Positions 8,552-61,270 of a stretch of DNA of 64,000 bases are shown one piece after another (the stretch's first letter is position 1; each line of letters opens with the position of its first letter). The position numbers were made by a program, and so were the translations under genes. Under the pieces are notes generated by a model. The model did no database searches. It had not been told where the DNA came from and worked only from the letters and a program-made list of their open reading frames with translations. The stretch is taken from NCBI GenBank assembly GCA_004322275.1, contig SCTA01000017.1:11595-75594 (forward strand). The letters are read 5' to 3'. The stretch comes from a bacterium (GTDB taxonomy: Bacteria; Desulfobacterota; Deferrisomatia; Deferrisomatales; BM512).

Positions 8552-9013
8552 CTACGCCAGTACGCCCAGCCAGGAGAGCGCGAGCAGCGCCAGCCTGGTG
8601 TATATGCCCGAAACCACATCGTCCAGAAGTATGCCGGCCCCTCCGGAAACGCTCCTGTCGAACCAGTTCGCGGGCCAGATCTTGATTATATCAAAGAGGC
8701 GGAATAAAAAAAACGCGGTCAGGTAGGACGCGGGCGTCGGCTTAAGGAAAGCGGTGGCGAACAAGAAGCCGACTATCTCGTCGAAGACTATCCAACCGGG
8801 GTCCTTGGCCGCGCCGAAACCCTCCGCCGCCCCGCAGACGTAGATGCCGAAGGGCAAGGAGAGGATCAGAAGAACACAAAGAAGCCAGGGAGGGAGGAGC
8901 GTTCCGGCAAGGGCGAGGGGTATGGCGGGCAGGGTCCCGAAAGTCCCGGAGATGAAGGGGGCGTACCCCGTCCCGAAGCCGGAAGCCAGAAGCCTGACCG
9001 GAAAGGAAGCCAT
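8552..9013 (-). CDS. pgpA: Phosphatidylglycerophosphatase A
   Basis: The internal Met gives 153 aa with GFGTGYAPFISGTFGTL...VFDEIVG...RLFDIIKIWP. The longer 310-aa ORF adds Arg-rich junk. The start overlaps the stop of the upstream gene by 1 nt. Confidence 0.85.
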   Translation of the reverse strand: MASFPVRLLASGFGTGYAPFISGTFGTLPAIPLALAGTLLPPWLLCVLLILSLPFGIYVCGAAEGFGAAKDPGWIVFDEIVGFLFATAFLKPTPASYLTAFFLFRLFDIIKIWPANWFDRSVSGGAGILLDDVVSGIYTRLALLALSWLGVLA

Positions 9014-10461
9014 TACATCCCGGTTTTCTGGCACATCTTGACGAAAGCCTCGACGCATTTCGGATCGAGCTGGGTTCCGCAGCAGCGGATAAGCTCCTCG
9101 ACAGCCTTGTCGTGCGGCAGGCCGTTGCGGTAGGGGCGGTTGGAGGTCATCGCGTCGTAGGTGTCCGCGACCTGCATTATGCGCGCCCCAAGCGGTATCT
9201 CGTCGCCCGAGAGCCCCTCGGGGTAGCCCGAGCCGTCGAAGCGCTCGTGGTGGTGGTAAACGATCGGGACCACGTCGCGCAAAAAGGAGATGTTTTCTAG
9301 GATTCTCTTGCCCATGTGGGTGTGCGACTGGATTATCCGGTATTCGGCGGAGCTGAGCCTGCCGGGCTTGTTCAGTATCACGCCCGATATGCCGATTTTC
9401 CCTATGTCGTGGAGTATTCCCGCCTGCCGGAGGGTGTCGATGAACCTCTTGCTGCAGCCCATCTCGCCCGCGGTGGCCTCGCAAAGGCGGGTGACGTTCT
9501 CGGAGTGGCCGTGGGTGTAGGCGTCCTTCGCTTCCAGTGCGAGGGCGAGGGACTGGATGGTCTCCCGGAAGGCGTTTTCGAGGTCGGAATAGAGGAGGGC
9601 GTTTTCGATGCTGGTGGCGGCGCGCTCCCCGAGCACGAAGAGGGCCTTTTCCTCCCTCGGCAGAAAGACGCGCCGTTCGGAGCGGGAAAAGACGTTGAGC
9701 ATGCCCAGAAGCTCGTCCCCGCGCCGCAGGGGGACGGTAATCATCGAACCGATATGCCCCCCGCAGCCGTCGTTTATTATGCCTTCGAGCCCCGCGCCGG
9801 AGCGTTTGAAGGAGGCCTGCCCCTTCAGGAGAGGTTCGAGCGAGAGGGGGTTGGCGAAGGGCTTGTCCACGAACTGGCAGTCCCCGGTCACAAGCCTCCG
9901 CGCGAATTCCCTGGAGCCCGGCTGGCGGAAGAGTATTTCGGCCCCGTCGGCGTCAACCTCTTTAAGGGCCGTCTCGACGACTATCGAGAGTATTTCGTCG
10001 AGGGAGAGGCTCGAGGAGACCGCCTCGCTGAGCTTAAGCAGGGCGACCTGCTCCTTGAGGTGTATATTGTCGGTGGCGAGACGTATCTTTTCAAAGGCCC
10101 GGTCCACCACCTGCAAAAGCTCGCCGATCTTGAAGGGTTTTAGTATGTAATCGTAGGCGCCCTTTTTCAGGGCGTCGATGGCGGTCTCAACGGTGGCGTA
10201 GCCGGTCATTATGATAACGGTGGCGCTGGAGTTCTGGTTTTTTATCGCCGCCAGAAGGTCCAGCCCCGTCAGCCCCGGCATCTTGAGATCGGTGATGACG
10301 ATGTCGAACTGGTCGTTTTTATAGGCTTCTATGGCTTCGGCGGCGTTGTGGGCGGCCGTGGTGATATAGCCCCTGCCCTCCAGCACGTCGCCGAGGACCG
10401 TGGTTATGTCATGTTCGTCGTCCACGATAAGGATGCGGCCGATCAGAGTGCCATTTTCCAT
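9013..10461 (-). CDS. Response regulator with REC, GAF-like and HD-GYP domains (c-di-GMP phosphodiesterase type)
   Basis: The receiver domain shows ILIVDDE...DIVITDLKMPG. The HD-GYP signature is HDIGKI...HHHERFDGSGYPEGL. Confidence 0.9.
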   Translation of the reverse strand: MENGTLIGRILIVDDEHDITTVLGDVLEGRGYITTAAHNAAEAIEAYKNDQFDIVITDLKMPGLTGLDLLAAIKNQNSSATVIIMTGYATVETAIDALKKGAYDYILKPFKIGELLQVVDRAFEKIRLATDNIHLKEQVALLKLSEAVSSSLSLDEILSIVVETALKEVDADGAEILFRQPGSREFARRLVTGDCQFVDKPFANPLSLEPLLKGQASFKRSGAGLEGIINDGCGGHIGSMITVPLRRGDELLGMLNVFSRSERRVFLPREEKALFVLGERAATSIENALLYSDLENAFRETIQSLALALEAKDAYTHGHSENVTRLCEATAGEMGCSKRFIDTLRQAGILHDIGKIGISGVILNKPGRLSSAEYRIIQSHTHMGKRILENISFLRDVVPIVYHHHERFDGSGYPEGLSGDEIPLGARIMQVADTYDAMTSNRPYRNGLPHDKAVEELIRCCGTQLDPKCVEAFVKMCQKTGM

Positions 10462-10695
10462 AAGGAATAATCCTCGTTATCGTCAACCTGCCCAAATGAG
10501 CGATGAGCGAGCGGACATGATAATAGAGCCGTGAGACAAACGGAAGAGGCGGCGCAAATATACATGCTTTTTTTGTGTTATGCTCCTTTGCGGTACACCC
10601 CGGTTGCATTTCACACGTCTATTGGATTATCTATAACCATGCCCCCTGGGACCCGGCCGGGTCCGCTCCCCCGGGCTTCAGGAAAGAAGGATTTT

Positions 10696-12267
10696 ATGTT
10701 TTCACGCTTTGCAGCCCTTTTTTTGGCGCTCTCAATCTCCCTTCCCGCCTTTTCGGCGGAAAGCTGGAACACGCGGCTGGTCTACGGCTCCGGGATTTCG
10801 GGAGAAGTCCTTCCCTGCGGCTGAAAATCCGGCAGGCTCGGGGGTCTTGCCCGAAGAGCGTACAAGCTGAGCGTACTTCGCGCCGAAACACGCGATACCG
10901 TCTACCTCGAAGGCGGCGACGCCCTCTTTCATCAGGAGTTCAACCTGCCGGGAGGCGACGAGCGCGCCTGGCTCCGGGAGAGGGCGAAGGTCGTCGCCGG
11001 AGAGCTTGCCCGGATGAACCCCGCGGCGATGGGGGTGGGCAGGAAAGACCTCGCCGACGGCCTCGATTTTCTTGTCACCGTCGGAGCGGCCGAAAAACTT
11101 CCCCTCGTCTCCTCCAACATCCTCCTCCCCGGCGGCAAAAGACCCTTCCCGGCTTTCAGATACATAGACTGGGGAGGGAAAAGGGCCGCGGTCTTCAGCC
11201 TCACCTACGCCATGCCGGAGCGGGACAAGGAGATGGGGATAACCGTCACGGACTGGACGGCGGCGGCGAAAAGCACCCTTGAGGAGATAAAGGACGTGGA
11301 TTTCGTCATCCTTTTGACCGACATCGGCTTTGACGCGGAACACGAGCTGGCGAGAAAGGTCAAGGGAATCAACCTCATTATCGGCGGCGGCCCCGGCCAG
11401 CGGCTTCTAACCGACCCCGACAGGGTCGAAGACACCCTTTTGCTCCGCTCCTCCGACAGGGGCAGGCATCTCGGGGTGCTGGACCTGAATTCGGCGTCTA
11501 TCTCCAAGAACTGGAAGCTGCCCATAGGCCAGAGCCAGATAAGATCCATGAGAGCACAGCTCGAAACCATTTCAGGCAAAATAAAGAGCGAATCGGCAAA
11601 GCAGGACCCCGCCTCGAAAGAGGAGGTCGCCAAACTGAAAAAAGCCCAGGACGACATCAACAGGGCTCTTGAGAACGTAACCGCGGGCGCGGCGACCTAC
11701 AAACACAGCATAGCCGTTCTCGATTCCGCCGTCTCCGACGACCCCGCCACGGCGAAGGCGGTCTCGGCGCTGGGCCAAAGCCCCGCCGAGAAGCGAAGGG
11801 AAGAGGCGGCCAAAGCCGCGAAATCCCTGCCGCGCAACGAAAGTCAGGCGGGCAAAAAGCCTCCCTCTCTGGCCAAACCCCAGGCGGTCTTGGCCGGTTC
11901 CGAGCCCCCCGCCGGCCCGTACAGCACCGGCACCGTCCCCTGCCGCAAGTGCCATCAGAAAGAGTATTCGAGCTGGCTTCGGACCCCCCATTACCGCTCG
12001 GGGACCTCTTTAGCCAAAGAAAAGCCCAGCGGCGAGTGCTACTCCTGCCACTATTCGAGGCTCATCTTTACCACCGGGATAGCGATAGAGCAGATGGTCG
12101 GCTGCGAAGTCTGCCACGGCAAAGGCTCGCTGCACGAAGGGAAGGAGGGAATAGTCAGAAAGCCGGAGGAATCCCTCTGCCGCAAGTGCCACAGCGGCTT
12201 CCACGGCAAGAAGGATTTTGATTTTCAGAGGGCTTACGAATCAATCAGATGCGATCGGAAAGAGTAA
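10696..12267 (+). CDS. Secreted 5'-nucleotidase/metallophosphoesterase-like protein fused to a tetraheme cytochrome c, interrupted by an in-frame TGA at 10822-10824 (selenocysteine candidate or pseudogene)
   Basis: The signal peptide is MFSRFAALFLALSISLPAFSA. The same frame continues across the TGA (..GEVLPCG-TGA-KSGRLGGLARRA..) with no other stop until 12267. The C-terminus has 4 CXXCH motifs (CRKCH, CYSCH, CEVCH, CRKCH). Confidence 0.6.
10831..10851 (+). promoter_or_regulatory. Candidate SECIS-like hairpin downstream of the in-frame TGA
   Basis: GGCAGG-CUCGGGGGU-CUUGCC forms a 6-bp stem (one G.U) with a G-rich 9-nt loop, starting 7 nt after the TGA. This is a hand fold only. Confidence 0.3.
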
Positions 12268-12286
12268 AAACTGCTGCGGTCCGTTG

Positions 12287-12775
12287 TTATCCGGCGCGGA
12301 GGCTCCGTGCGATTCTCTCGACTATGGAGGTGGTGGATTTTCCTTCGACGAGGGGGATGGAAAGGACCTTGCCGCCCGCCTTTTCGACGGCTTCCCTGCC
12401 GACGATCGACTCGACGGGCCAGTCGCCTCCCTTCACGAGAAAATCGGGGAGAAGCGCCTCGATGAGCTTTAGGGGTGTGTCTTCGTCGAAGAGCACGACG
12501 TAATCCACCGAACGAAGCGCGCTAAGCACCGCCGCCCTCTCGCCCTCGTTCATTATGGGCCGTCCCGGCCCCTTCCCCTGCCTTTTCACCGAAGCGTCGG
12601 AGTTGAGACCTACGACGAGGATATCCCCCAGCGACCTTGCCTTGTCCAGATAGGTGACGTGGCCGGGGTGGATTATGTCGAAGCACCCGTTGGTAAAGAC
12701 GATCTTTTCGCCCGCTTTTCTTCGCGGCGCGATCTCCTCAAACACCCGCTCCAGCGGCACCGCTCCCTTAATCAT
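12287..12775 (-). CDS. D-glycero-beta-D-manno-heptose 1-phosphate adenylyltransferase (stand-alone RfaE/HldE domain II)
   Basis: The cytidylyltransferase motifs [17 protein letters not shown] and GGDW are present. The start was placed at the Met that makes an ATGA overlap with the upstream stop. Confidence 0.85.
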
Positions 12776-14658
12776 TCCACTACCCACGGCAGGTAGCCCG
12801 CGCGGTAGAGGAGGGGGAGCGCCTCGGCGGGAATCTTCGCCCTCGTCATGAATATCCTGCCCTGACCCCGCTCTTCGCCCGAGAGCTCCGGGTAGAGGGC
12901 CAGAGCAAGGGACGGCTGGTCTATTTCAAGCCCCTCCGCCTCGAAGGAGAGCGCCCCTTCGGAGGGAAGGCTGAGGGCGACCTGCCGGTGAACCACGCCG
13001 AGGAGGGAGAAAAGGTCCTCCGCCTTCTTGAGAGGGTCGCCCGCTTCCGGCCAGGCGAAGGTGAAGTACCCCGAACGAAGGAGGATGGATTCGGCGTTCG
13101 CGGGCTTTTCCGGCGCGACGGCGTATTTCATCGCGCCGTATTCAAAGACGAGCTTGGGCCGTATCGTGTAGGAGACTCCGTTGTCGAGCCTGCAGGTGAC
13201 GGCGGGCTTTAGCCTGTTGGCGACGCCGATCATGCTGAGCAGCTCGGCCGCTCCCTCTACCGACGGGGCAAAGGAGACGGTTGCCGCATGGGTCAGGGGG
13301 GACCTGGCCTCCTCGCTTTCGCGCACTCCCCCGAGGCTGTGAAGGACGTAGCCCCGGGACTTTACGAGGCGCACGAGTCCGGGGTCTATGGAGGCACCTT
13401 CGGAGAAGATGAGATGCATCCCTCCCTCCCATTTTGCCTCGGGAGAGGGGGCGACGGCCCACTTCGCGCGGACCCGGAGGCTGGTTTTGTCGGCCAGAGA
13501 GACGGAGCGGGCGCCCTCCGACAGCTCGTGAAACTTAAGCTGTTTCAGAACGGCCCCGAGAAAATCTTCCGGCGCGTAGGCTCCCGGCAATAATACCTCG
13601 TAGCCCCACGCGCCCTTTATCGCCTCCGCCATCTGCGCGGAGAGCTTCGCTCCTGCGTCGATGATCACCTTTCCCCCGTCGGGTCCCGAAATCACCGGAA
13701 AATCCTTCGCTTCGAGGCGGATCGAGCGGCCCCGGGAGACGGGTATGTACCTTTCGCCCTCCCTGTCGATGCTACACCCCAGCTTTTCAAGGAGCCCGAG
13801 CACCGGCAGGTATCTTTCGATCTGTGCTTCCGGGGCCGGGGGAGGCGTTTGCGCGGCTGTTGCCGGCGCGGGTGGAGCCTGTGCGGGCGCTTCTGACGCT
13901 TCCTCCTTCGCGGCCTTCGGCGGGGCCGCTTCAACGGGCGAAACGGCAACCGGGGCGGCGGCGGGAGGTTCGGGTTTCGCCTGTTTGGCCGAAGGCGAAG
14001 GGGCTGGCGCTGGCGCTGCCGGAACCGCGGCGATTGCCGGGGCGGGTGCGGCGGCGGGCACAGCCTCCGCCGGTTTTACAGCCAGTAGCTCCTCGGGAAA
14101 GACCAGCACCTGACCGACCAGAAGGAGGTTCACGTCCTTTAAGGAAGGGTTGGCATTCTTGACCTTCTGGAGCGCCTCCTTGACCTGGTATTTGTCAATC
14201 CCGAAATCCCTCGTGAGAATTGTCCAGAGAGTTTCACCCTTCTTGACGGTATGGCTCGCCTTTTTCTGTTTGGGTGCGGGCGCGGGAGGAGGAGGCGCCA
14301 CGGCAGGCAAAGCTGGCGGGGATACTCCCGCCTCCACCTTGAAGGGAACCCTTACCAGCTGTCCGGCGGGGGGCCTCTCGGGGTCGACGCCGGGATTGAG
14401 ATCCCTGAAGACCTCGGTGAAAAAGGGGATGTCGCCCTGCCCTATGCCGTAGTCATCCCTGAGGATGGCTTTTATCGACTCGCCTTTGTCCACCGTGCGG
14501 GTTTCGGCGAAAATCTTCTCGCCCCGGGGCGTATTCTGGATATGGAGGGTTTTTTTGAATTTTATGCGAGCGCCTTCGGGCGGAGGCTTCTCCGCCGCAT
14601 TCGCCCACACCGCAGGGACCAGAAGCGCTAAAAGAGCGAATAAAGCGCGTCTTTTCAC
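12772..14658 (-). CDS. Secreted LysM-repeat protein with Pro/Ala-rich linkers and a large uncharacterised C-terminal domain
   Basis: It has a signal peptide and two LysM-like segments ([18 protein letters not shown]...VGQVLVFP and [18 protein letters not shown]...AGQLVRVP). A long PAPAPA linker follows. Confidence 0.75.
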
Positions 14659-21835: not shown

Positions 21836-22606
21836 ATGAAGGTCTTGGTTCCGGTAAAGAGAGTGCAGAACCCCGAGGTAAAGGTTCGCCTTGCTCCCGG
21901 CGGGTTATCCGTAGACTCCTCGAACGTCAACTTCATCCTCAATTCCTTCGACGAGTACGCGGTCGAGGAGGCGGTGAGGATAGTGGAAAAGGAGGGCGGC
22001 GAGGTGGTTCTGGTGTCCATCGGACTTCCCGAGTGCGAAGAGACCCTTCGCGCCGGGCTGGCGCTCGGGGGCGACAGGGGGTGGCTCGTCGAGTGTTCCG
22101 AACCACCCGACAGTTTCGGCGTCGCCTCTATACTGGCCGCCGTATATAACGAGGAAAAGCCCGATCTCGTCGTCGCCGGAAAGCAGTCTGTCGACACCGA
22201 CAACGGGCAGGCGGCCCAGATGCTCGCCGCGCTTCTCGGCCTGCCGCAGGCCATAAACGCCTGCAAGGTCGAGCTTCTGGGCAAAAGGGCGAGAGTATCG
22301 CGGGAGATCGACGGCGGCATCGAGGTGAAGGAGGTTCCCCTCCCCGCCGTGATAACCGCGGACCTTAGGCTGAACCAGCCCCGCTACGCCTCTCTTCCCG
22401 CGATAATGAAGGCGAAGAGAAAAGAGCTTAAAAAGACCACCCCCGCCGCTTTGGGAGTGGAGTTGACGAACTCGGTCACGATCCTTTCCTTCGCCGAGCC
22501 GCCCGAAAGAGCGCCGGGAAGAATGGCAAGGAGCGTCGGGGAATTCGCCGAAGCGCTTGCGGCTGCGGCGAAAACCCTTAAAAGATCCGGGAGTCAAATT
22601 CCATGA
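21836..22606 (+). CDS. etfB: Electron transfer flavoprotein subunit beta
   Basis: The sequence MKVLVPVKRV...NSFDEYAVEEA...VVAGKQSVDTDNGQ is EtfB-like. Confidence 0.9.
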   Translation: MKVLVPVKRVQNPEVKVRLAPGGLSVDSSNVNFILNSFDEYAVEEAVRIVEKEGGEVVLVSIGLPECEETLRAGLALGGDRGWLVECSEPPDSFGVASILAAVYNEEKPDLVVAGKQSVDTDNGQAAQMLAALLGLPQAINACKVELLGKRARVSREIDGGIEVKEVPLPAVITADLRLNQPRYASLPAIMKAKRKELKKTTPAALGVELTNSVTILSFAEPPERAPGRMARSVGEFAEALAAAAKTLKRSGSQIP

Positions 22607-23556
22607 CGATACTGGCCGTAGCCGAACAGCATGAGGGCAAGGCGGCGCACTCCGGGCTCTGCGCGATTTTCGCCGCGCAAAAACTCGCAGCCCAAAAAGG
22701 TTCGCCCTTCGACCTCCTCGTCCCCGGCGCAGGGGCTTTTGCCTGCGCTAAGGAACTTGGAGCCTTTGGCGCGTCTAACGTCTTCTACGCCAAAGCGGGG
22801 GAAGGAGAAACCTTCACTGCGGAGGGCTGGGCCGGGACGATAGCCCGGCTCGTTGGCGAACGCGGCTACAGCGCCGTAATCGCGGCGGCGACCTCCGAGT
22901 CCAAGGATTACCTGCCGAGGGTCGCGGGACTCCTTCGCGCCGGGATGGTGAGCGAGGCGGTGGGGTTCGAGGAGGGGGCGTACCTTCGCCATATGTTCGC
23001 CGGAAGCGTAGTAGCCAGGGTCGCGGTAAACACCGCCGTCGCCGTCGTGACCATCCGCGAGGCCGCCTTCGAGCCCGTGTCTCCCTCGGGAGGAGCTTCC
23101 GCCCTCCTTGAAATTTCCTTTGCTCTCCCGCCGGAGGGAGTGGCCGTTATCGAGCGGCGCATGCACGCCTCCTCCCGCTCCTCCCTGACCGAGGCCAAAA
23201 TCGTCGTCGGCGCGGGAAGGGGGATAAAAAACGAGGCGGGGCTGAGAATCGTGGAGGAGCTGGCCGACCTTCTCGGCGCTTCAATAGGCGCGAGCAGGGC
23301 GACGGTGGACGAGGGGCTCTTGCCGAACGACCTCCAGATAGGCCAGACCGGCAAGGTAATCGCCCCGGAACTTTACCTCGCCTGCGGCGTCTCCGGCGCG
23401 ATACAGCACACCGCCGGGGTAAAGGACTCCAAAATAATCGCGGCGATAAACAAGGACCCGGAAGCGCCGATCTTCGGCATTGCGGACGTCGGACTCGTGG
23501 CGGATTTCGCGGTTGCGGGGCCGGAACTGGTTTTAAAACTCAAAGAGCTTCTGTAA
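22603..23556 (+). CDS. etfA: Electron transfer flavoprotein subunit alpha
   Basis: The FAD-binding C-terminal region is IGQTGKVIAPELYLACGVSGAIQHTAG. It overlaps etfB by 4 nt. Confidence 0.9.
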   Translation: MTILAVAEQHEGKAAHSGLCAIFAAQKLAAQKGSPFDLLVPGAGAFACAKELGAFGASNVFYAKAGEGETFTAEGWAGTIARLVGERGYSAVIAAATSESKDYLPRVAGLLRAGMVSEAVGFEEGAYLRHMFAGSVVARVAVNTAVAVVTIREAAFEPVSPSGGASALLEISFALPPEGVAVIERRMHASSRSSLTEAKIVVGAGRGIKNEAGLRIVEELADLLGASIGASRATVDEGLLPNDLQIGQTGKVIAPELYLACGVSGAIQHTAGVKDSKIIAAINKDPEAPIFGIADVGLVADFAVAGPELVLKLKELL

Positions 23557-23615
23557 AAAGCTCTGGTGTATACTTAGCTCCGAAACCGCTAACGGCAGTA
23601 TTTTGGGAATTTAAA

Positions 23616-25547
23616 ATGGCCAACGGTCTCGACGCCGCCCTCGTCCTCGTAAGTTTCACTTTTTTTGTCGAAGGCGTGAGGCGGCGGCTTAAAAAAATCA
23701 GCATCGGCCTGCCTTCCGGTCAGGAATCCTCCGGCGGCCTTTCCTTCCGCGAATTTTTGCGGGAGGTCTTCGGCCACGCGAAGGTTTTGCGCGAACCCCA
23801 GGGAGTACATCATTACCTCTTTTTTCTCGGCTTTCTGGTTCCTCTCGCTTTCGTGGCGCTGGTCCAGCTCTCCTTCGCCGTTCCCGCGCCCGCCGCCCGC
23901 TTCGTCTCCCTCTTTCTGGAGATTACCGGCGTCCTCGGCCTTTACGGGCTCTCGCGCCTCTTTTTCAGAAGATACCTGGCCAGGCCGCCGGAGCTTAAAA
24001 GCGGGCCGGAGGATTTCGCCCTCCTCACCTTTTTCGGCTTCCTCTTCAAGAGCGGCTTTTTCGTCGAGGCGGGCAGGCTCGCGCTGGCGCCCTCCGAAAG
24101 CGCGCTCTGGTCGCCGGTCGGGCACCTGCTTTCTCTCCCCCTCGGCTTTCTTTCGCAGGACGCAAAGCTGGAGTTCCTTCGCCTCCTCTGGAGGCTCCAC
24201 CTCTTCGCCGCCCTCGCCGGGATAGCCCTCCTGCCCTACGGAAAGATGGGCCACGCGGTCTACGGGGCCATGAACCTCCTCTGGTACGGGAAGAGGCCGA
24301 AGGCCTTCCCGACCCCCGACCTCGAAGGAAGCGAGTATTTCGGCGCGGGCCACATCTCGAAGCTCACCCGAAAAAACCTGCTCAACATTTCCTCCTGCGT
24401 GCGCTGCGGCAGGTGCGAGAAGGTCTGCCCCGCCAACTTCACCGGAAAGCCCCTGAGCCCTCAGAAAGTCGTGAACGACCTTAACGCGCGGCTGAACGGG
24501 GAAGCTGCCGGGATTATGCGAGGAGGGGAGGAGAATATCGGCTCCCCCCTCGTCGGCGAAGGGGCGATACTGGAAGAAACCCTCTGGAGCTGCACGGCAT
24601 GCCTCCACTGTGTCGAAGCCTGCCCTCTGGCCGTGAACCCGCTCTACAAGATTATAGAGATGCGCCGCTTCGAGGTGCTTATGGAGGGGCGCATGCCCCC
24701 CGAGCTCATCACCTTCAACAGAAACCTCGAAAAGAACTTCAACCCCTGGGGCATCGGCTGGTCGAAGCGCGAGGAGTGGTTAGAGAGGCGAGGGCTCCCG
24801 GTTCCGATAGCCAAAAAGGGCGAGCAGTACGATGTATTGCTCTTTCTGGGGTGCGCCGGGGCCTTCGACGACAGGTACCAGCGCGCCGTGGCCTCTCTTG
24901 TGCGGATATTGGCGCTTGCCGGGGTGAAATTCGCTGTTCTGGGCAACGCGGAGAAATGCTGCGGCGAGCCCGCCCGCGTAACCGGCAACGAATACCTGTT
25001 CCAGACGCTGGCGCGGGAGAACATCGAAAACATAAAGGCTCTGGGCGTAAGGACCGTCGTCACCGCCTGCCCCCACTGCCAGAAGACTCTTTCGGCCGAC
25101 TACGCGGATTTGGGCGGAGATTTAAAGGTCGTTCACCACTCAAACTACCTTTCCGGTCTCCTCGAAAGCAAAAAACTTTCGCTCAAAACCCCGCTCGAAG
25201 GCACCGCCACTCTTCACGACTCCTGCTACCTTTCCCGCTACTTCTGCAATATCGAGAAGCCCCGGCGCATCGTCTCCGCCTCGGGCCTTACCCTCAGGGA
25301 AATGGAGAAGCGGGGGGAGAAAACCTTCTGCTGCGGAGGGGGAGGAGGAAGGATGTGGATGGAGGACAAGGGAACCCGGATCGGGGACGCGCGGGCAAAA
25401 GAAGCGCTGGAGACGGGGTGCTCCATAATCGCCACCTCCTGCCCCTTTTGCCTCTCGATGCTTACCGACGGGGTGAAGGCAGCGGGAAAGGAAGGCGAAG
25501 CCGAGGTGCTCGACCTGGCGGAAATCCTCGAAAGGGCGCTGACATGA
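23616..25547 (+). CDS. Membrane-bound (Fe-S)-binding oxidoreductase with 2x[4Fe-4S] and CCG (HdrD/GlpC-like) domains
   Basis: The N-terminal half has about 5-6 hydrophobic helices. Ferredoxin-type motifs are CVRCGRCEKVCP and CTACLHCVEACP. There are two Cys-rich CCG-type segments (CCGEP..., FCCGGGGG). Confidence 0.85.
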   Translation: MANGLDAALVLVSFTFFVEGVRRRLKKISIGLPSGQESSGGLSFREFLREVFGHAKVLREPQGVHHYLFFLGFLVPLAFVALVQLSFAVPAPAARFVSLFLEITGVLGLYGLSRLFFRRYLARPPELKSGPEDFALLTFFGFLFKSGFFVEAGRLALAPSESALWSPVGHLLSLPLGFLSQDAKLEFLRLLWRLHLFAALAGIALLPYGKMGHAVYGAMNLLWYGKRPKAFPTPDLEGSEYFGAGHISKLTRKNLLNISSCVRCGRCEKVCPANFTGKPLSPQKVVNDLNARLNGEAAGIMRGGEENIGSPLVGEGAILEETLWSCTACLHCVEACPLAVNPLYKIIEMRRFEVLMEGRMPPELITFNRNLEKNFNPWGIGWSKREEWLERRGLPVPIAKKGEQYDVLLFLGCAGAFDDRYQRAVASLVRILALAGVKFAVLGNAEKCCGEPARVTGNEYLFQTLARENIENIKALGVRTVVTACPHCQKTLSADYADLGGDLKVVHHSNYLSGLLESKKLSLKTPLEGTATLHDSCYLSRYFCNIEKPRRIVSASGLTLREMEKRGEKTFCCGGGGGRMWMEDKGTRIGDARAKEALETGCSIIATSCPFCLSMLTDGVKAAGKEGEAEVLDLAEILERALT

Positions 25548-29095: not shown

Positions 29096-29980
29096 CTAGG
29101 AGACGATCAGCTGGTGGGCGTTGCAGTGGTGGAACAAATGATGACTCACCGAGTCGAAAAACCTCCCGGCGATGTCGCTGACTTCCGGCCGCCCGACGAT
29201 CACGAAATCGTAGGATTCCTCCTCCCGGACCTTGCAGGCCAGCGCCGCCGCGTCCCCCTCCAGCACCTCGGTGGCTGCGACATGCCCGGATACCGCGAGC
29301 TTTTTCACGTACCCCTGCAGCATCTCCTCGCCTTCGCGGTGAGCCTTTTGAAGTGTTTCGTAGCGCTCTTCGGCGCTCATGCCGTCCACCCCGAGTTCCT
29401 TGAGGTCGATGGTGTAGAGGAGGGTTACCATTACGGTTTCGGGCGAGTTCAGCTTCTCCAGGAATTTTACGCATCTTTCGGAGACGGGCGATTTGTCCAC
29501 GGCGCAGAGGACTTTGAGCTTGCCGTCTTTCGCGATGGATTCGGGGGGAGGGCCGTATTGCTTTACCACGAGAATCGGTTTTCGGACCACCCTGATAAGT
29601 TCGCTGGAGACGGTGCCGACAAGCACCTCCCAAAGATCGCTGCGCACCTTCGACCCGAGAACGAGAAGATCGTATTTGTTAGCTATCTTGGAGATTGTCC
29701 CTTCAGGTCTGCCCTCAAAGATTTTTATTTCGGGGTCGATGCCGATTTTTTTGAGTTTATCGACCCCTTTCCCGACCTCGATCCTCGCCGCCGCCCTTTC
29801 GCGCTCCATGAGGGCGCCCGAGACGGGCTCCGGCGCGAGGAGATAGCGGAACCAGCCGGGGTAAAGAGCGTGCGCAAGGGTAATCTCTCCGCCGGTCGCC
29901 AAAGCTATCCGGCCCGCCGCCTCCACTCCGGCGAGCGCCTCTTCCGTGCCGTCCACGGGAACGATGATCCTGAGGGGCAT
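29096..29980 (-). CDS. Universal stress protein, tandem UspA domains
   Basis: Two Usp-like halves are present (MPLRIIVPVDG..., KVLCAVDKS...), each ending with G..GR/GS-type ATP-binding-like segments. Confidence 0.8.
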   Translation of the reverse strand: MPLRIIVPVDGTEEALAGVEAAGRIALATGGEITLAHALYPGWFRYLLAPEPVSGALMERERAAARIEVGKGVDKLKKIGIDPEIKIFEGRPEGTISKIANKYDLLVLGSKVRSDLWEVLVGTVSSELIRVVRKPILVVKQYGPPPESIAKDGKLKVLCAVDKSPVSERCVKFLEKLNSPETVMVTLLYTIDLKELGVDGMSAEERYETLQKAHREGEEMLQGYVKKLAVSGHVAATEVLEGDAAALACKVREEESYDFVIVGRPEVSDIAGRFFDSVSHHLFHHCNAHQLIVS

Positions 29981-30329
29981 GGGTTCCTCCCGGCAAAGGT
30001 CACTTACTTCTTTTGAAGTAAGCCAGATTGCTGACAAACTTCGTCTTTTCTCCGATTGACTTCGTCAGGCTCGAAAAACGATCCTCGAAATACCTTCCAG
30101 TATTCCTCCGGTCTTTTTTCTCGCCTTCCTCGTTCTCGAAAAAAATACTATGTTTGTCGCAATCTTAAGCCTGTTGACCTGGTGTACCCTTGCTGTTCTG
30201 TTTTTGTGTGCGGAAAACTTCTCTTTCGCCACAAATGACTTTGTCAACAGTCTGAAGCTCTTTTGAAGTAAGCCTCACTTTGGAGCCCCGTCAAGGAAAC
30301 CACGCAAAAGAACCCGAACGGCACAGCCG

Positions 30330-54017: not shown

Positions 54018-54431
54018 TTAAAACAGGAGCTCCGCGATTTCCCGGACGCTGCGCACGAGCTGTCCGTGGCCGCTGTGGAGGTAGACGCCGAGCTGGGCGA
54101 TGAGATCGACCGCGAAGGCGAACTGGGCGAGGGCGAAACCGGCTATTGTGAACTGGCTTACGCTGACGACGCCTATTCCGAATTGGGAGAGGGTGAAGAT
54201 TCCGGCGGCGAACTGGCCTATGGCTATTATTCCCCTTGCGGGCACCGGCATACGGTTCGCCCGGTACTTGAAGGAGACGTGGACGAGCGGCATTCCCATG
54301 AAGGTTCTTTGGCTCTTGTACTCGAAGCCGTAGCCGTCCCACTTTTCCCTGGCCGGGTAGGGGGCTCCGCACTGGGGGCACATGAAGGCGTTTTCCGAAA
54401 CCGTGCGCCCGCACTCCCGGCAGGTTTTCAT
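54018..54431 (-). CDS. Zinc-ribbon domain membrane protein
   Basis: The N-terminal zinc ribbon is CRECG..x..CPQCG. Repeated hydrophobic xQF segments follow (GQFAAGIF, SQFGIGVV, SQFTIAGF, AQFAFAV). The ATGA overlap with the upstream kinase stop suggests translational coupling. Confidence 0.6.
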   Translation of the reverse strand: MKTCRECGRTVSENAFMCPQCGAPYPAREKWDGYGFEYKSQRTFMGMPLVHVSFKYRANRMPVPARGIIAIGQFAAGIFTLSQFGIGVVSVSQFTIAGFALAQFAFAVDLIAQLGVYLHSGHGQLVRSVREIAELLF

Positions 54432-57142
54432 GCCGGCTGGGTCCCGTCGAGCACTTCGCGGATCTTGGCGCCGAGGGTTTTGAGGGAGAAGGGCTTTGAG
54501 AGGAAATTGACGCCTTCGTCGATAACTCCCCTGTGGGCTATCACGTTGGCGGTGTAGCCGGACATGAAGAGGCATTTAAGGCCAGGCTGTATGGCGGATA
54601 TCTTCTCGTAGAGCTCTTTTCCGTTCATTTCGGGCATTACCACGTCGGTTACGAGCAGGCCGATTGCGCCTTTGTTCTCTTCGGCGAGCCTGAGCGCCTC
54701 CGCAGGGCTTCCGGCGGCCAGCACGCGGTAGCCGAGCGAGGCGAGAATCCGCCTGCCGAGGCCGAGTATCGCTTCTTCGTCCTCGACGAGGAGAATCGTC
54801 TCGCTGCCCCCCAGGGTTACACTGCCGGGTTCCGCCGCAGTTTCGGCTTTTGCCAGCGTCCGGGGCAGGTAGATGCGGAAGGTGGTGCCGAGGCCGGGCT
54901 CGCTGTAGACGTTTATGAAGCCGCCGTTCTGCTTGACTATGCCGTAGACGGTGGAAAGGCCGAGCCCCGTGCCCTTGCCGCGTTCCTTGGTGGTGAAGAA
55001 GGGGTCGAAGATTTTCGCCAGTTCCTCTTTTTTCATGCCCGCGCCGCTGTCGCTGACGGCGAGAAGGACGTACTCTCCCGGCATGAAGCCCGCGTGGCCT
55101 TCGCAGTACTGTTCGTCCAGAGTCACGTTGTCGGTCTCGATCTCTACCTTGCCGACCCCCTGTATAGCGTCCCGGGCGTTGGTGACGAGATTCGCCATTA
55201 GCTGGTCTACCTGCGAGGGGTCGATTTTAACCCTCCAGAGGTCTTTCCCCGGCTTCCATTCGAGGTAGATGTCTTCGCCGATAAGCCGGCGGAGCATTTT
55301 CTGCATCGGCTCTATCGTATCGTTCAGGTCGAGCACCTTCGGAGCCACCGTCTGCTTGCGGGCGAAGGCAAGAAGCTGGCGGGTTATTTCCGCCGAGCGC
55401 TTCGCGGCCTTTTGTATCTCCTCAAGGTCCTCCCGTAGCGGATTTTGGGGCTCTATCTGCTCCAGCGCGAATTCGGCGTGGCCGAGAATGACCCCCAGCA
55501 TGTTGTTGAAATCGTGGGCGACGCCCCCCGCGAGCTGGCCGACCGATTCTATCTTCTGGGACTGAAGCAGCTGGCCCTCCAGCTTGGCCCGCTCCGCCTC
55601 CATGCGCTTTATTTCGCTGAGGTCGCGAAAAAAGCCCAGAGTGGCGGTCCCCTCGGGCAACTGTATCATGGCGATGTCGATCAGGAAGGGGAAAGTGGTT
55701 CCGTCCCGCCTGATGCCCGTGGTTTCATAGGCGTTTGGCACCTCTTCGCCCCTTTCGCGCCGTTTGTTGCGATCGATCAGTTCAGCGTGGGCTTCTTTCG
55801 GCAAAAGAGCGGTTATCGGGACGTTGACAAGTTCTTCCGGGCTGTCGTAGCCGAAGAGACGGGCATGGGCCGGGTTCACGAGGACGTGTTTTTGTCCTCT
55901 CGCTATGCCGATGCCCACCGGAGCGCCCTCGAAGATGGCGCGGAATCTCTCCTCGCTGGTCAGCAGGGCCTTTTCGGCCCTCTCCATGCGCTTTCTCTGA
56001 ACGAGCAGCGCGCCTATGAGCAAGGACTGAGCGATAAAGACGACAAAACCAAAAATTATAAATCCCTTGTACTGGTCCCAGAGAAGCGGGGGCCGGTCGA
56101 TGAAGACGCTCTCTTCGGGGAGGTTTTTCGGGTGGCCTCCCCACCGCTCGATCTGCTTCCAGTCGAAGACGGGAACCGCCCTGTTGTCGGCTACCGTCAC
56201 GGGCTTTTCGAGGACAAGTTTTTTGCCGAGGATGTCCAGCGCGCCGACGGCGGTTGTTTCGCCGAGGTCCTTTACGCTTATCACCGAGCCGCCGATGCCG
56301 CCGTTGGTGAGGTTGAAGTCGTAGAGCCCGAAGACGGGGGCGTTGGCCGCCCTGGTAATCATCCCCTCGACCTCGTAGGCGAGGGTTGCGCGGCCGTTCG
56401 TATCCTTGTTGTACTGGGTGAAGATGATTACGGAGAAGGGGGGGAGGGTTGAAACCCGGTGGAGCATCTCCGGAAGGGAGAGGCCTGTGGTGTATTCCTG
56501 CTCCACCTTCCCCTGCCAGGGCTGGGCGGTCTTTGACGCCTCGGAAGCCATCTTCCTGTCGGCCTCGCTCGCTCCGGAAACGAAGACCACCCGCCGGGTG
56601 GAAGGGAAAAGCTCGAACGCCCGCTCAAGGGTTCCCTTTATGTCGAAGTGCGCCACCTGGCAGAGGAATTTTCGCCCCGCAGCCTCTTCTTCGGAGGGCG
56701 GGGGCGCCTGCACGGTGATTACCGGAGCGGAGGGAGCCAGCTCTTTTCCTTCCCGCAGCAGAAACCACAGCGCGGGCTGCTGCACGGTGACGACAAGATC
56801 GAACTTCCTGGAGGAGTACTTCTCCCTTAGCAGGGAAAGCAGCTTTTGCGGGTACTCCCTGTCCTCCTGATGTCGCCCCAGATCCAGAAACTCGGAATAG
56901 ACGTCGTTTGCGCTTACCCCCCCCTTGCTGAGAGCGGTGAAAAAACCCTCGTTGAAAATCCTCACTCCCTGGCCCCCGTGGCCGTAGGAGTAAAGAAGGA
57001 GGATGCTTTTGGGGGCGGCTTCGGGTGAACCGGCGTGCTGCGCCCTTGCCCGAGCGGGGCAGGCGAAGTGCGCGCAGAGTAAAAGCAGCGTCGCCGCGAG
57101 AGCGAAAATACGCCTTGCCGACGCCATCCGGTAGTCACTCAT
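54428..57142 (-). CDS. Hybrid sensor histidine kinase/response regulator (periplasmic binding-protein-like sensor, PAS, HisKA, HATPase, REC)
   Basis: It has a signal/TM segment, then a second TM ([21 protein letters not shown]). The H box is VAHDFNNML, the G boxes are GTGLGLS, and the C-terminal receiver shows ILLVEDE...[11 protein letters not shown]. Confidence 0.9.
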
Positions 57143-57594: not shown

Positions 57595-60500
57595 CTAGCT
57601 GTCGAGAACCTCACGAACCTTCAACCCCAAAGTCTTCAGCGAAAAAGGCTTCTGCAGAAAGCTCACTCCTTCGTCCAGTACTCCCCTGTGGGCTATTACG
57701 TCTGCGGTGTAGCCCGACATGAAGAGGCATCGAAGCCCCGGCTGGATGGCCAAAATCTTTTCGTAGAGTTCCTTGCCGTTGATCTCGGGCATCACCACGT
57801 CGGTGACTAGAAGGTCTATGGACCCGGCGTTTTCCTCGGCCAGCCTTATGGCCCTGGCCGGGCTGTTGGCCGCCAGCACGCGGTACCCGAGAGCCGTCAG
57901 GCTTCTCTTGCCCAGGTTAAGTATAGCCTCTTCGTCCTCTACGATCAGCACCGTCTCCCTGCCGCCCTTCGGAGCTTCGGCGTATTCGCAGAAATTATCC
58001 GACACGTCGGCGTGCGCCTTGGGGAAATAGATGCGGAAGGTGCTGCCGAGGCCGGGCTCGCTGTAGACGTTTATGAAGCCGCCGTTCTGCTTGACTATGC
58101 CGTAGACGGTCGCCAGGCCGAGGCCGGTGCCCTGGCCGACGTCTTTGGTGGTGAAAAAGGGGTCGAATATTCTGGTGAGCTTGTCTTTTTCTATGCCGCA
58201 GCCGTCGTCGGTGACGGTGAGGAGGACGTACTCTCCGGAGGTAAAGCCGGGGTGCCCTTCGCAGTAATGGCTGTCGAGCACCACGTTGTTCGTCTCTATG
58301 CTTACGTTTCCCGCGCCCGATATGGCGTCGCGGGCGTTGGTCAGTAGGTTCGCCAGAAGCTGGTCTACCTGCGAGGGGTCGATCTTCACCCTCCAGAGAC
58401 CGCTTCCCGGCTTCCAGTTGAGCGCTATGTCCTCGCCGATGAGGCGGCGGAGCATCTTCAGCATCCCCGAGACGGTGTCGTTCAGGTCGAGCACCTTCGG
58501 GGCCACGGTCTGCTTGCGGGCGAAGGCCAGAAGCTGGCGGGTGATGTCCGCCGACCGCTTCGCCGCCTTTTCGATCTCCTCCAGGCTCTCCCGGAGCGGA
58601 TTTTGGGGCTCGACCTGCTCCAGGGCAAGTTCGGTGTGGCCGAGAATTACTCCCAGCATGTTGTTGAAATCGTGGGCGACGCCTCCCGCGAGGCGGCCTA
58701 CCGATTCTATCTTCTGCGCCTGCAGAAGCTGGGACTGGAGGCGGTCCTTCTCCTCCTCGGAGCGCTTTTGCTCGGAGATGAAGCGCGCCTGCAGGACGTT
58801 CTGGTAGGCCATTGTGGAGATCTGTTTCGCCAGAGTGTAAAGGGTCTGCGCGACCCTGCGGAACTGCTCCTGCGACATCGGGGGGACTTCCCTGAAGGCC
58901 TCGATGAAACCCTCCTCGTCGGCCCCTATATCTCGCGCGTACTCCCGCATCTTCTCTTCGGTCTGCGATTCGTCCCTGACCTGCCCGATCAGCCAGTTGG
59001 CAACGTGCCTTCCGCCGACGGTTATGCTCGCGCCCGCGTCCCACAGCCCGCCGCTGAGACAGGGCCGCACCGTCGGCCCGGTGGCGTTGGCGCCTCCGAT
59101 TACCGCGTCCGAGCGGTAGCAGCTGGACAGTCCCTTTTCGGTCTTGCGGATTATCTCCGAACAGAGCCGGGTGAAGTTGCTGGGCCGGGTGAGGGGTTTT
59201 CCCTCGGGGTCGGTTATTATCGAGGCCACCCCGGCGGCGCTGGCGAACTGATCCTGTAATTTCTGCATCTCTTCGATATTGAGGAGTTCTTCAAACCCTA
59301 TGCCCTCCGCCTCGTCCAGCGGACGGGTCAGCTCTTCCATCCGGCTCTTTAAGGACAGCTCGGCGCGCTTCCTTTCGGTCACGTCACGAAAGACGCAGGC
59401 AAACTGCCCCTCCTTCGGCCGGTAGGCGAAGACCTCGAAATACTTGTCCAGTTCGCCGCTGTAGTTCTCGAACTGGGCGGGCTCCCCGGTAAGGGCGACC
59501 TTCCCGTAAAGCTCTATCCAGTAGGATTCGGTTCCGGGGAGCACTTCCAGCACCCGCTTCCCCAGTATTTTTTCCGCGCTCAGCCCGGTCTGGCGCTCGA
59601 AGGCGGGGTTTACCGACAAGAAGCGGTAATCGGCAGGACGCCCGTCTTCGTCGAGAACTATCTCGTGAATCGCGAAGCCGTCGAGCATGCCGTTGAAAAG
59701 GCCCCGGTAACCCGCCTCGCTCTCCTCTATCTTTTTCTGGGCCTCGTATTCCTGCGACTGGTCCCGGAAGACCAGCACCACGCCGGTTATCCTGCCCTCT
59801 TCGTCATGGATCGGCGCGGCGCTGTCGGCGATAGGCCTTTCGGTGCCGTCGCGGGAGGAAAGAACGGTGTGGTTGGCGAGCCCCACGATCCGCCCGTTGC
59901 GCACTACTTCGCGGACGGGATTCTCGACGGCCTTCCGCGTCTCCTGATTGAAGATGAAAAAGACCTCTTCGAGGGGCTTTTGGTACGCCTCCTCCTTACG
60001 CCAGCCGGTTAGCTCCTCGGCCACACCGTTGAGCAGCTCGACGCGGCCTTCGGCATCGGTGGTGATTACTCCGTCCCCTATGCTCATCAGGGTCGTGCCG
60101 TATCTCGCCTCGCTCTCCCTCTTGGCCTTTTCCGAGGCGAAGAGAACCCGGTACTGCGCCTTGGCGTTTCGCTCCCACACCGTCCTGACGGCGACGGCGA
60201 CGAAAACGCCGGTCCCCGCGAGCATGAAGAGAATGAGAGCCGAGCGGAACTGCCACTCGGCGAAGGCCTCGCTCATGTCCACCTTGGTGACCATGTGCCA
60301 GGCGGTGCCGGGAACCGGATTTAAAACGGAGAGCACCGGGACGCCGCGGTAGTCAATCCCCTGAAAGACCCCCTCCCTCCCCAGCACGGCCTGGACAGCG
60401 GGCAAATTCTCTCGCGTGAGGGGTATCCGGAACTTGAGGGCCGTACCGGTCCGGTGGCGAAGCTCGTTGAGGTAGAGGACGTCTTCGCCGTCGCGGCGCA

Positions 60501-61131
60501 CCAGCAGCGTCTCGGAGGAATCGCTCGGCACCGGCCAGCTCTGGATAAGGGGGTAGAGGAACTGGTTCGCGTCGTTTTGCAGGATGAGAAGGCCTATATA
60601 CCTCTGCGCTCCCTTCTCCTCGGTAAAAAGCGGCGCGACTACGCTGAGGTGGGGGTGTTGTCCGTCGTCCTCCGTGTGAATCTGCGTGAGAAAGGGCCTT
60701 CGCTGGGCGATGGCTTCCTGAATGGCGGGGAGGGCGATATCGTGGACGTGGCCCGGGTTGCCGCTCAGGGTGAAGACAACCTTGCCGGTTGAATCGGTTA
60801 AAAAGATGTCGTTGTAGGCATAGTGCATCTGCATCGCCCGAAGGCTCTGGCGGAGGTCTTCCGTCATCGCCTCCCGGCGGGGATTTTCAATCCAGCGCGC
60901 TATGGACTCACAATAGTAAGGGCTGTTCATGAAGAGCACGGCCTCGCTCAGCCTGTCCTCCCGCCAATGTACTATCTGGTCCACTTTCAAGCTGGCGATG
61001 GACTGGAGTTTTGCCTCCGTCTCCGCCCTGAGCTGGCGCTCCTGGGCGCGGTAGAACAAATAACCTCCCCCCAGAACAACCGCCATAGATATGGTAAAGA
61101 TCAAAGTCAGCCAGCGGGGATATTTGGCCAT
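57595..61131 (-). CDS. Hybrid sensor histidine kinase/response regulator (Cache-like periplasmic domain, multiple PAS, PocR-like domain, HisKA, HATPase, REC)
   Basis: Two TM segments flank a periplasmic domain of about 270 aa. The PocR-like segment is [20 protein letters not shown]...[30 protein letters not shown]. The H box is VAHDFNNML and a receiver lies at the C-terminus. Confidence 0.9.
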
Positions 61132-61270
61132 GAACGCCGTCCTCCAATTGCAAGGCTGAACAACTGCCAGCTTGATAAAAAACAATAGCCGGAAACACGG
61201 TTTGTCTAACCGCGCCTACGGGTTTTAAATACATCCATTCTCAATATCTTGTCCAGCAATTCTCTTTTTG

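Follow-up and report, generated by a model that had tools for sequence, protein, structure and literature searches.

A probable UshA-like Cys-Gly-Sec selenoprotein with a C-terminal tetraheme module, encoded across an in-frame TGA

The UshA-like CxU selenoproteins were catalogued in the 2008 Global Ocean Sampling (GOS) selenoproteome survey, which listed 76 sequences with selenocysteine (Sec, U) and 92 with Cys (PMC2398784), and they appear again in reviews from 2022 and 2026 (PMC9312934, PMC13188914), the second of which names the NCBIfam model NF041198; the family is widespread and is known from bioinformatics only. Here we describe a reading frame at positions 10696-12267 (+ strand) of a 64,000-nucleotide stretch of bacterial DNA (contig SCTA01000017.1, positions 11,595 to 75,594; the whole stretch is referred to below as the window), which, read directly from the sequence, contains a single in-frame TGA at 10822-10824. 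We estimate at roughly 0.93 the probability that 10696-12267 is one gene for a periplasmic UshA-like CxU (PCGU) selenoprotein, in which this TGA is the Sec codon. The selenoprotein family is already catalogued and the window gene adds a member to it, so the finding is not a new one.

Members of NF041198 have in common with the window protein a signal peptide, the motif P-C-G-U followed by GGL(A/S)(R/K)(R/K), a degenerate UshA-type domain, a helical linker and four C-terminal CXXCH motifs, as well as a TGA at the identical codon and GGUCU at +22 to +26; the core clade of the family differs from the window's clade in the pairing partners around the hairpin that carries the GGU loop, and identity between core members and the window protein is only about 25-30%. 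A second UshA-derived selenoprotein family, with a CxxU motif where the window protein has CxU, gave a weak local match to window residues 180-274 (E 5e-15; 55.6 bits against a cutoff of 140), and its model covers 262 positions without a heme module. The N-domains of Escherichia coli UshA, CD73, bacterial 5'-nucleotidases and SoxB, all of which are periplasmic or secreted, are homologous to that of the window protein; compared with these dimetal phosphoesterases, the window protein has the proposed Cys-Gly-Sec motif and a tetraheme module instead. Small multiheme cytochromes of the cytochrome c554/NrfB type have four CXXCH motifs, as the window module does, but they are stand-alone electron carriers, whereas the window module is a C-terminal domain fused to the putative selenoprotein domain.

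Reading frame and domains of the gene

The gene and its parts, as read or predicted from the sequence, are as follows.

10681-10691, + strand: purine-rich ribosome-binding region, GGAAAGAAGGA, 4 nt before the ATG at 10696 (read directly)
10696-12267, + strand: proposed complete selenoprotein coding sequence, 523 residues plus stop, with Sec as residue 43 (full-length NF041198 match)
10696-10758, + strand: signal peptide of the Sec (general secretory) type, MFSRFAALFLALSISLPAFSA, predicted cleavage after FSA (by inspection)
10816-10824, + strand: proposed Cys41-Gly42-Sec43 (TGC GGC TGA), corresponding to the family's CxU motif (LPCG-TGA at 10810-10824; PCG-TGA shared by 13/13 Sec-form loci)
10768-11520, + strand: degenerate UshA/5'-nucleotidase-type metallophosphoesterase domain, about residues 25-275 (family-profile matches to PDB chains)
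11521-11910, + strand: helical, low-complexity linker, about residues 276-405, in place of the 5'-nucleotidase C-terminal substrate-binding domain (ends of the profile matches; structure model of P0002, a Cys-form homolog)
11911-12264, + strand: cytochrome c554-like tetraheme module (Pfam PF13435, PDB matches and four CXXCH motifs)

From the ATG at 10696, the first 42 codons encode MFSRFAALFLALSISLPAFSA and then ESWNTRLVYGSGISGEVLPCG, and the TGA closes them after GEVLPCG. Past the TGA the frame is open for 480 sense codons, up to the TAA at 12265-12267; at the all-frame stop frequency of the window (0.022), the probability of 481 open codons arising by chance is about 2e-5. The earliest in-frame ATG, GTG or TTG downstream of the TGA is at 11014. 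The initial annotation of this DNA had described the same arrangement, namely a 42-codon open reading frame (ORF) with a ribosome-binding site and a signal peptide that ends at 10822-10824, followed by a stop-free frame whose next start is only at 11014, and the sequence agrees with it on each of these points. It had also proposed that the two pieces belong together, which an end-to-end match to NF041198 and the conserved stretch after the TGA support, and its two domain assignments (a degenerate 5'-nucleotidase/metallophosphoesterase-like domain and a C-terminal cytochrome module with four CXXCH motifs) are borne out by the profile matches, lost metal-ligand motifs and Pfam score given below. 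Scored with U read as C, the window protein is collinear with NF041198 (UshA_like_PCGU, "UshA-like (seleno)protein") over residues 7-510, against model positions 4-518 of 519 (E 2.2e-79).

Gene callers split the locus into a 42-amino-acid ORF and a 417-amino-acid ORF (11014-12267), and an ortholog (locus L004; such handles denote the loci compared in this analysis) was divided identically by Joint Genome Institute (JGI) gene calling. The miscalled small ORFs span 42-68 amino acids across the family (L011-L019, L012, L004 and the window). Automatic callers thus annotate the locus and its relatives as though there were two products, a 42-residue secreted peptide ending at the TGA and an independent cytochrome starting at the ATG at 11014. 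We consider this very unlikely. From the TGA to 11014 there are 63 codons, with no ATG, GTG or TTG among them, that are conserved as protein (GGLARR...YLEGGDALF) and are part of the same UshA-type domain as the sequence downstream of them; a product starting at 11014 would have no signal peptide, although heme attachment requires the periplasm; and the called starts scatter among relatives, from query residue 5 to 114, which marks them as artefacts of gene calling. The sole signal peptide available to the heme domain is that of the full-length 523-residue precursor, upstream of the UGA, and a hydrophobic N-terminal leader precedes PCG-TGA in every one of the 13 Sec-form loci.

When the family profile was compared with PDB chains, its N-terminal part matched the N-domain of 5'-nucleotidases, YfkN, UshA and SoxB (E 1e-27 to 1e-14). 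Residue-level alignments show that only GD is retained among the metal-ligand and catalytic motifs (DxH, GD, GNH[ED], His and GHxH): relative to 2z1a, 7d0v and 5h7w, GNHEFD is replaced by GRKDLA, LSHLG/LGHSG by LTDIG (His to Asp) and GGH by GGG, and the motif I region of the window protein reads YGSGISGE. The 5'-nucleotidase C-terminal substrate-binding domain was not found (the PDB profile matches stop at profile positions 236-306, and there was no Pfam 5_nucleotid_C match), and the equivalent of the linker in the P0002 structure model consists of long helices, modelled with moderate confidence. Judged by these motifs, the window protein is not a functional 5'-nucleotidase, and the nucleotidase label that JGI gives to its relatives should not be applied to it.

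For the C-terminal part, the PDB profile matches were to cytochrome c554 (1bvb, E 6e-17) and to the multiheme protein 6i5b, and the heme module alone was recognized in the Pfam scan (PF13435 Cytochrome_C554, 25.4 bits, above the 20.8 cutoff). Its heme-binding motifs are CRKCH (11941-11955), CYSCH (12037-12051), CEVCH (12103-12117) and CRKCH (12178-12192). A further Cys, Cys519 (12250-12252, ...IRCDRKE), lies 4-5 residues from the C-terminus and is invariant in the window's clade (IRCD); a similar Cys is present in two core-clade members (LLNCPPA and LIRCPAS), and there is none in several Cys-form homologs. Cys519 could be the resolving partner for Sec, or it could be unrelated.

Conservation of the TGA and the candidate SECIS element

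Relatives were collected with HMMER, in an exhaustive scan for which the protein encoded after the TGA was the query; it gave 3786 relatives at E <=1e-3 and 867 at E <=1e-10. The 13 Sec-form loci compared here are the window, L004, L001, L002 and nine representatives with truncated-looking gene calls. The TGA directly follows P-C-G in 13/13 of these truncated-looking loci, over a range of about 25-81% identity and with the peptide conserved on either side. The two orthologs L004 (JGI metagenome, about 81% identity) and L001 (metagenome-assembled genome [MAG] SRXB01000007.1, 52%) have the TGA at the same codon within conserved flanking peptide, all nine representatives with N-terminally truncated-looking calls (9/9) have an in-frame TGA after P-C-G with a signal peptide upstream, and L002, from an Acidobacteriota MAG (30% identity), has the in-frame TGA after P-C-G as well. 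Among the full-length homologs, C-x-C (mostly EPCGC) is found in 19/21, the second Cys being aligned with the TGA, so that the homologs carry either Cys or TGA at residue 43, as the initial annotation had anticipated. At least 34 representative clusters (at the 50% identity level) start exactly at (M/L)GGLS(K/R)KA, four codons past the Sec position, as expected if gene callers stop at the TGA. Protein searches by word index, run from one sequence or from an alignment, returned 5-6 matches and were saturated by heme-motif candidates, and a scan of metagenome contigs with a 3-sequence alignment returned heme-domain look-alikes only.

This comparison bears directly on the simplest explanation of an interrupted frame, that a nonsense mutation has made the gene a pseudogene or that a TGC or TGT was misread or misassembled as TGA. 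A lone in-frame stop in an otherwise intact gene would look like this in any one sequence. However, 13 independent assemblies, which come from separate projects and different phyla, share this TGA codon; their ORFs are intact, and selection at the protein level is evident on either side of the TGA; the explanation is effectively refuted, and we assign it a negligible probability.

We then considered the RNA downstream of the TGA, where a Sec insertion sequence (SECIS) would be expected. In E. coli, G23 and U24 of the SECIS lie in the apical loop, and SelB contacts U17 and G23 (PMC8659212). Published criteria for bacterial elements (bSECIS) are a loop of 3-9 nt, a stem of 4-16 bp, a G within the first two loop positions, a UGA-to-loop distance of 16-37 nt and a minimum free energy (MFE) of -7.5 kcal/mol or lower (PMC13188914). 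The corresponding features of the window are as follows.

10831-10854, + strand: candidate SECIS region, with two mutually exclusive pairing registers, A/A2 and B (folding energies)
10843-10847, + strand: GGUCU, positions +22 to +26 counted from the first base of the UGA (invariant, 13/13 Sec-form loci)

All 13 Sec-form loci use GGU for the Gly at +22 to +24, while GGU accounts for only 0-33% of the remaining Gly codons of these genes and for 2% of those of the window gene. Multiplied naively, the frequencies give about 1e-15, a figure that is inflated by relatedness among the loci. In the Cys-form control, L020, the TGC is followed by GGG GGG CUC, with no GGU. The bases of the window at +17, +23 and +24 (10838, 10844 and 10845) are U, G and U, the same bases at the same distances from the UGA as U17, G23 and U24 of the E. 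coli fdhF SECIS, in which G23/U24 are in the apical loop. The window element likewise lies directly downstream of the UGA and within the coding region; its hairpin differs from that of fdhF in stem sequence and length (4-5 bp, with a 7-nt loop in register B), and a U17 bulge like that of fdhF is not demonstrable in the candidate hairpin.

The hairpin proposed in the initial annotation, 10831-10851, does exist as register A (-7.8 kcal/mol; variant A2, -6.7), but this register pairs G23/U24 and is unable to form in the core clade (at a cost of +12 to +16 kcal/mol). The more general proposal of a SECIS-like element after the TGA fared better, in register B (-8.1 kcal/mol), in which 10838-10842 pair with 10850-10854 around the loop GGUCUUG (10843-10849); with a 5-bp stem, a 7-nt loop beginning with GG and 18 nt from the UGA to the loop, register B falls within the published bSECIS ranges. 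In the core clade, a B-like hairpin with the loop GGUCU is the MFE structure, and what all the loci share is a loop that leaves the GGU at 10843-10845 exposed. We conclude that a SECIS presenting G23/U24 probably lies within 10831-10854, with its exact pairing ambiguous between the registers.

Extended versions of the GGU-loop hairpin were seen in two further loci. In L017 (an ortholog with 76% G+C content), positions 1423-1467 fold into this hairpin with an additional 7-bp lower stem (GAGCGGC/GCCGCUC; -24.3 kcal/mol); of the single sequences, this one supports register B most clearly. The extended hairpin of L015 is weaker (-13.7 kcal/mol).

Genetic code, Sec machinery and opposing evidence

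A recoded genome, in which TGA would be read as Trp or Gly, has nothing in its favour beyond the TGA itself. Elsewhere in the window TGA is a normal stop, closing three genes that have the lengths expected of them (etfB, livM and an HdrD-like gene), and none of the 18 conserved window genes has an internal stop (0/18 with an internal TGA). Nor does the window hold another convincing readthrough candidate. The only other sizeable one, at 29096-30247 (- strand) with a TGA at 30067, was rejected: its upstream frame is of low quality, and a tandem UspA-like protein starts downstream. An alternative code is thereby refuted and is given a probability as negligible as that of a pseudogene or sequence error. 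The conserved TGA, its alternation with Cys, the translated stretch after it and the standard code together rule out faulty assembly, a pseudogene, a pair of independent genes or a recoded genome as explanations of the locus.

A number of observations weigh against reading the TGA as a Sec codon, or against parts of that reading. No selA, selB or selD was found when about 50 ORFs of the 64-kb window were scanned against NCBIfam, and ARAGORN found no tRNA-Sec in the window (0 tRNAs of any kind); a missing set of sel genes and tRNA-Sec in 64 kb says little about the genome. The scanned ORFs are housekeeping and regulatory genes, including traB, alaS, pilT, recA, pgpA, a response regulator of the RR-GAF-HD-GYP type, hldE domain II, hemL, atpB and paaK, together with etfBA, the HdrD-like gene, meaB, livHM, iorAB, queE, an rluD-like gene, dnaJ, dapF, rho and two hybrid histidine kinases.

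The structure of the SECIS also drew several null results. Across the compared loci there were no compensatory double changes for register A or B, and RNAalifold retained just two invariant G-C pairs; the hairpin columns are constrained because they encode the conserved peptide GGLARR. Single-sequence MFE folds of 60 nt around the TGA were no more stable than shuffles, and the folds of three orthologs were inconsistent with one another. Rfam gave no SECIS or other relevant family, either over the whole window at the gathering threshold or over 10780-10920 at E <=10, and synonymous sites downstream of the TGA, compared among the three closest orthologs, showed no significant conservation (7/11 against a background of 52%, p about 0.33). 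The Cys-form control for the GGU codon consists of one locus only.

Three further points concern the protein. Its NF041198 score, 267.4 bits, lies under the curated cutoff of 275. The other members of the window's GGLARR-type clade behave in the same way, all falling just below 275 (window 267, L001 268, L011 263 and L016 273 bits), and because two loci of the GGLSKK-type core clade score 575 (L012) and 569 (L018) bits, we take the curated model to be centred on that clade. The window's clade appears to be a sister clade of the NF041198 core, with a miss of the cutoff that is marginal and consistent; in architecture, motif and recoding the window gene is a member of the homologous family, whose NCBI equivalog model would, by a narrow margin, leave this clade unnamed. 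The AlphaFold model of the Cys-form homolog P0002 has a mean pLDDT of 63, with values below 50 in the CGC loop and the heme module, so the motif is not placeable in it. Finally, the function that Cys-Gly-Sec might have, that of a selenenylsulfide-type redox centre exchanging electrons with the hemes, is speculative.

One rival is readthrough of the UGA without Sec, in which a near-cognate tRNA would put in Trp, Cys or Arg in a genome that lacks Sec machinery. It is consistent with the missing sel genes and tRNA-Sec and with an exact SECIS structure that covariation does not prove. Finding no sel genes in as little as 64 kb, however, carries little weight; Cys at the aligned position across the family is the classic Sec/Cys signature; the family is curated as a selenoprotein family; and leaky decoding leaves unexplained why a rare GGU is fixed in 13/13 loci at the position of E. 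coli G23/U24. We therefore regard this rival as improbable, and decoding of 10822-10824 as Sec as the preferred account of the locus.

Proposed mechanism, neighbouring genes and implications

By reference to the family and to the established bacterial Sec pathway, the UGA at 10822-10824 would be decoded as Sec by the SelB-GTP-Sec-tRNA(Sec) complex, with SelB probably recruited by the short downstream hairpin, whose apical loop would expose G23/U24 (10844/10845). The precursor would then be exported by the Sec translocon, and four hemes would be attached at the CXXCH motifs in the periplasm. The alignments show the mature protein to have the fold of a 5'-nucleotidase in which most of the dimetal ligands are missing, with the proposed Cys41-Gly-Sec43 in the loop after the former motif I, followed by the helical linker and the c554-like tetraheme module. 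The redox model mentioned above would make the protein a periplasmic oxidoreductase and not a phosphoesterase.

A conserved gene order surrounds the gene in orthologs (window, L001 and L004): the RR-GAF-HD-GYP regulator, the putative selenoprotein gene, hldE domain II and a LysM-type gene. The neighbours in the window are as follows.

Upstream of the putative selenoprotein gene: pgpA-like gene (conserved order in the clade)
9013-10461, - strand: RR-GAF-HD-GYP response regulator, upstream and divergently transcribed
12287-12787, downstream, convergent: hldE domain II
12772-14658, downstream: Pro-rich LysM-type protein

The conserved order spans 8552-14658 of the window and 890-7054 of L001, and L016 and L017, carried by GCA_030591565.1 and GCA_024277875.1, were also compared; these two loci have another kind of response regulator (PatA_N/TPR/DnaJ) in the upstream position, and in the core-clade loci L012 and L018 a DHH/DHHA2 phosphoesterase lies downstream instead. 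No obvious functional partner or operon emerges from the compared neighbourhoods.

Two other groups of window genes were noted. At 21836-25547, etfB and etfA are followed by a 643-amino-acid HdrD/TfrB-like iron-sulfur protein with a membrane-like N-terminus; these three genes, next to paaK, look like a membrane oxidoreductase module linked to electron-transfer flavoprotein (ETF). The 643-amino-acid protein gave a weak, far sub-threshold match to NF045663 ("diclust_near_Sec"), and the module shows no sign of Sec. At 54428-57142 and 57595-61185 (- strand) are two tandem hybrid histidine kinases of 904 and 1196 amino acids, with CckA-like kinase cores and receiver domains, the second of which also has a PAS domain.

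The current picture of selenoprotein biology is unchanged by this finding. One practical consequence is for annotation: the gene and dozens of its relatives are routinely split into a tiny ORF and a truncated "2',3'-cyclic-nucleotide phosphodiesterase / 5'-nucleotidase", with both the boundaries and the function wrong. In addition, the fixed, rare GGU at +22 to +24 offers a simple and testable SECIS signature for the family. It is possible, though on balance doubtful, that the protein represents a new kind of periplasmic selenoenzyme, in which a dead metallophosphoesterase scaffold has had its dimetal site replaced by a Cys-Gly-Sec motif wired to four c-type hemes; if so, there would be no characterized precedent for its chemistry, which might, for instance, involve inorganic sulfur, selenium or some other redox-active substrate in the periplasm. 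The combination of Cys-Gly-Sec and four hemes on a repurposed phosphoesterase fold would make the family a reasonable target in the search for new periplasmic redox chemistry.

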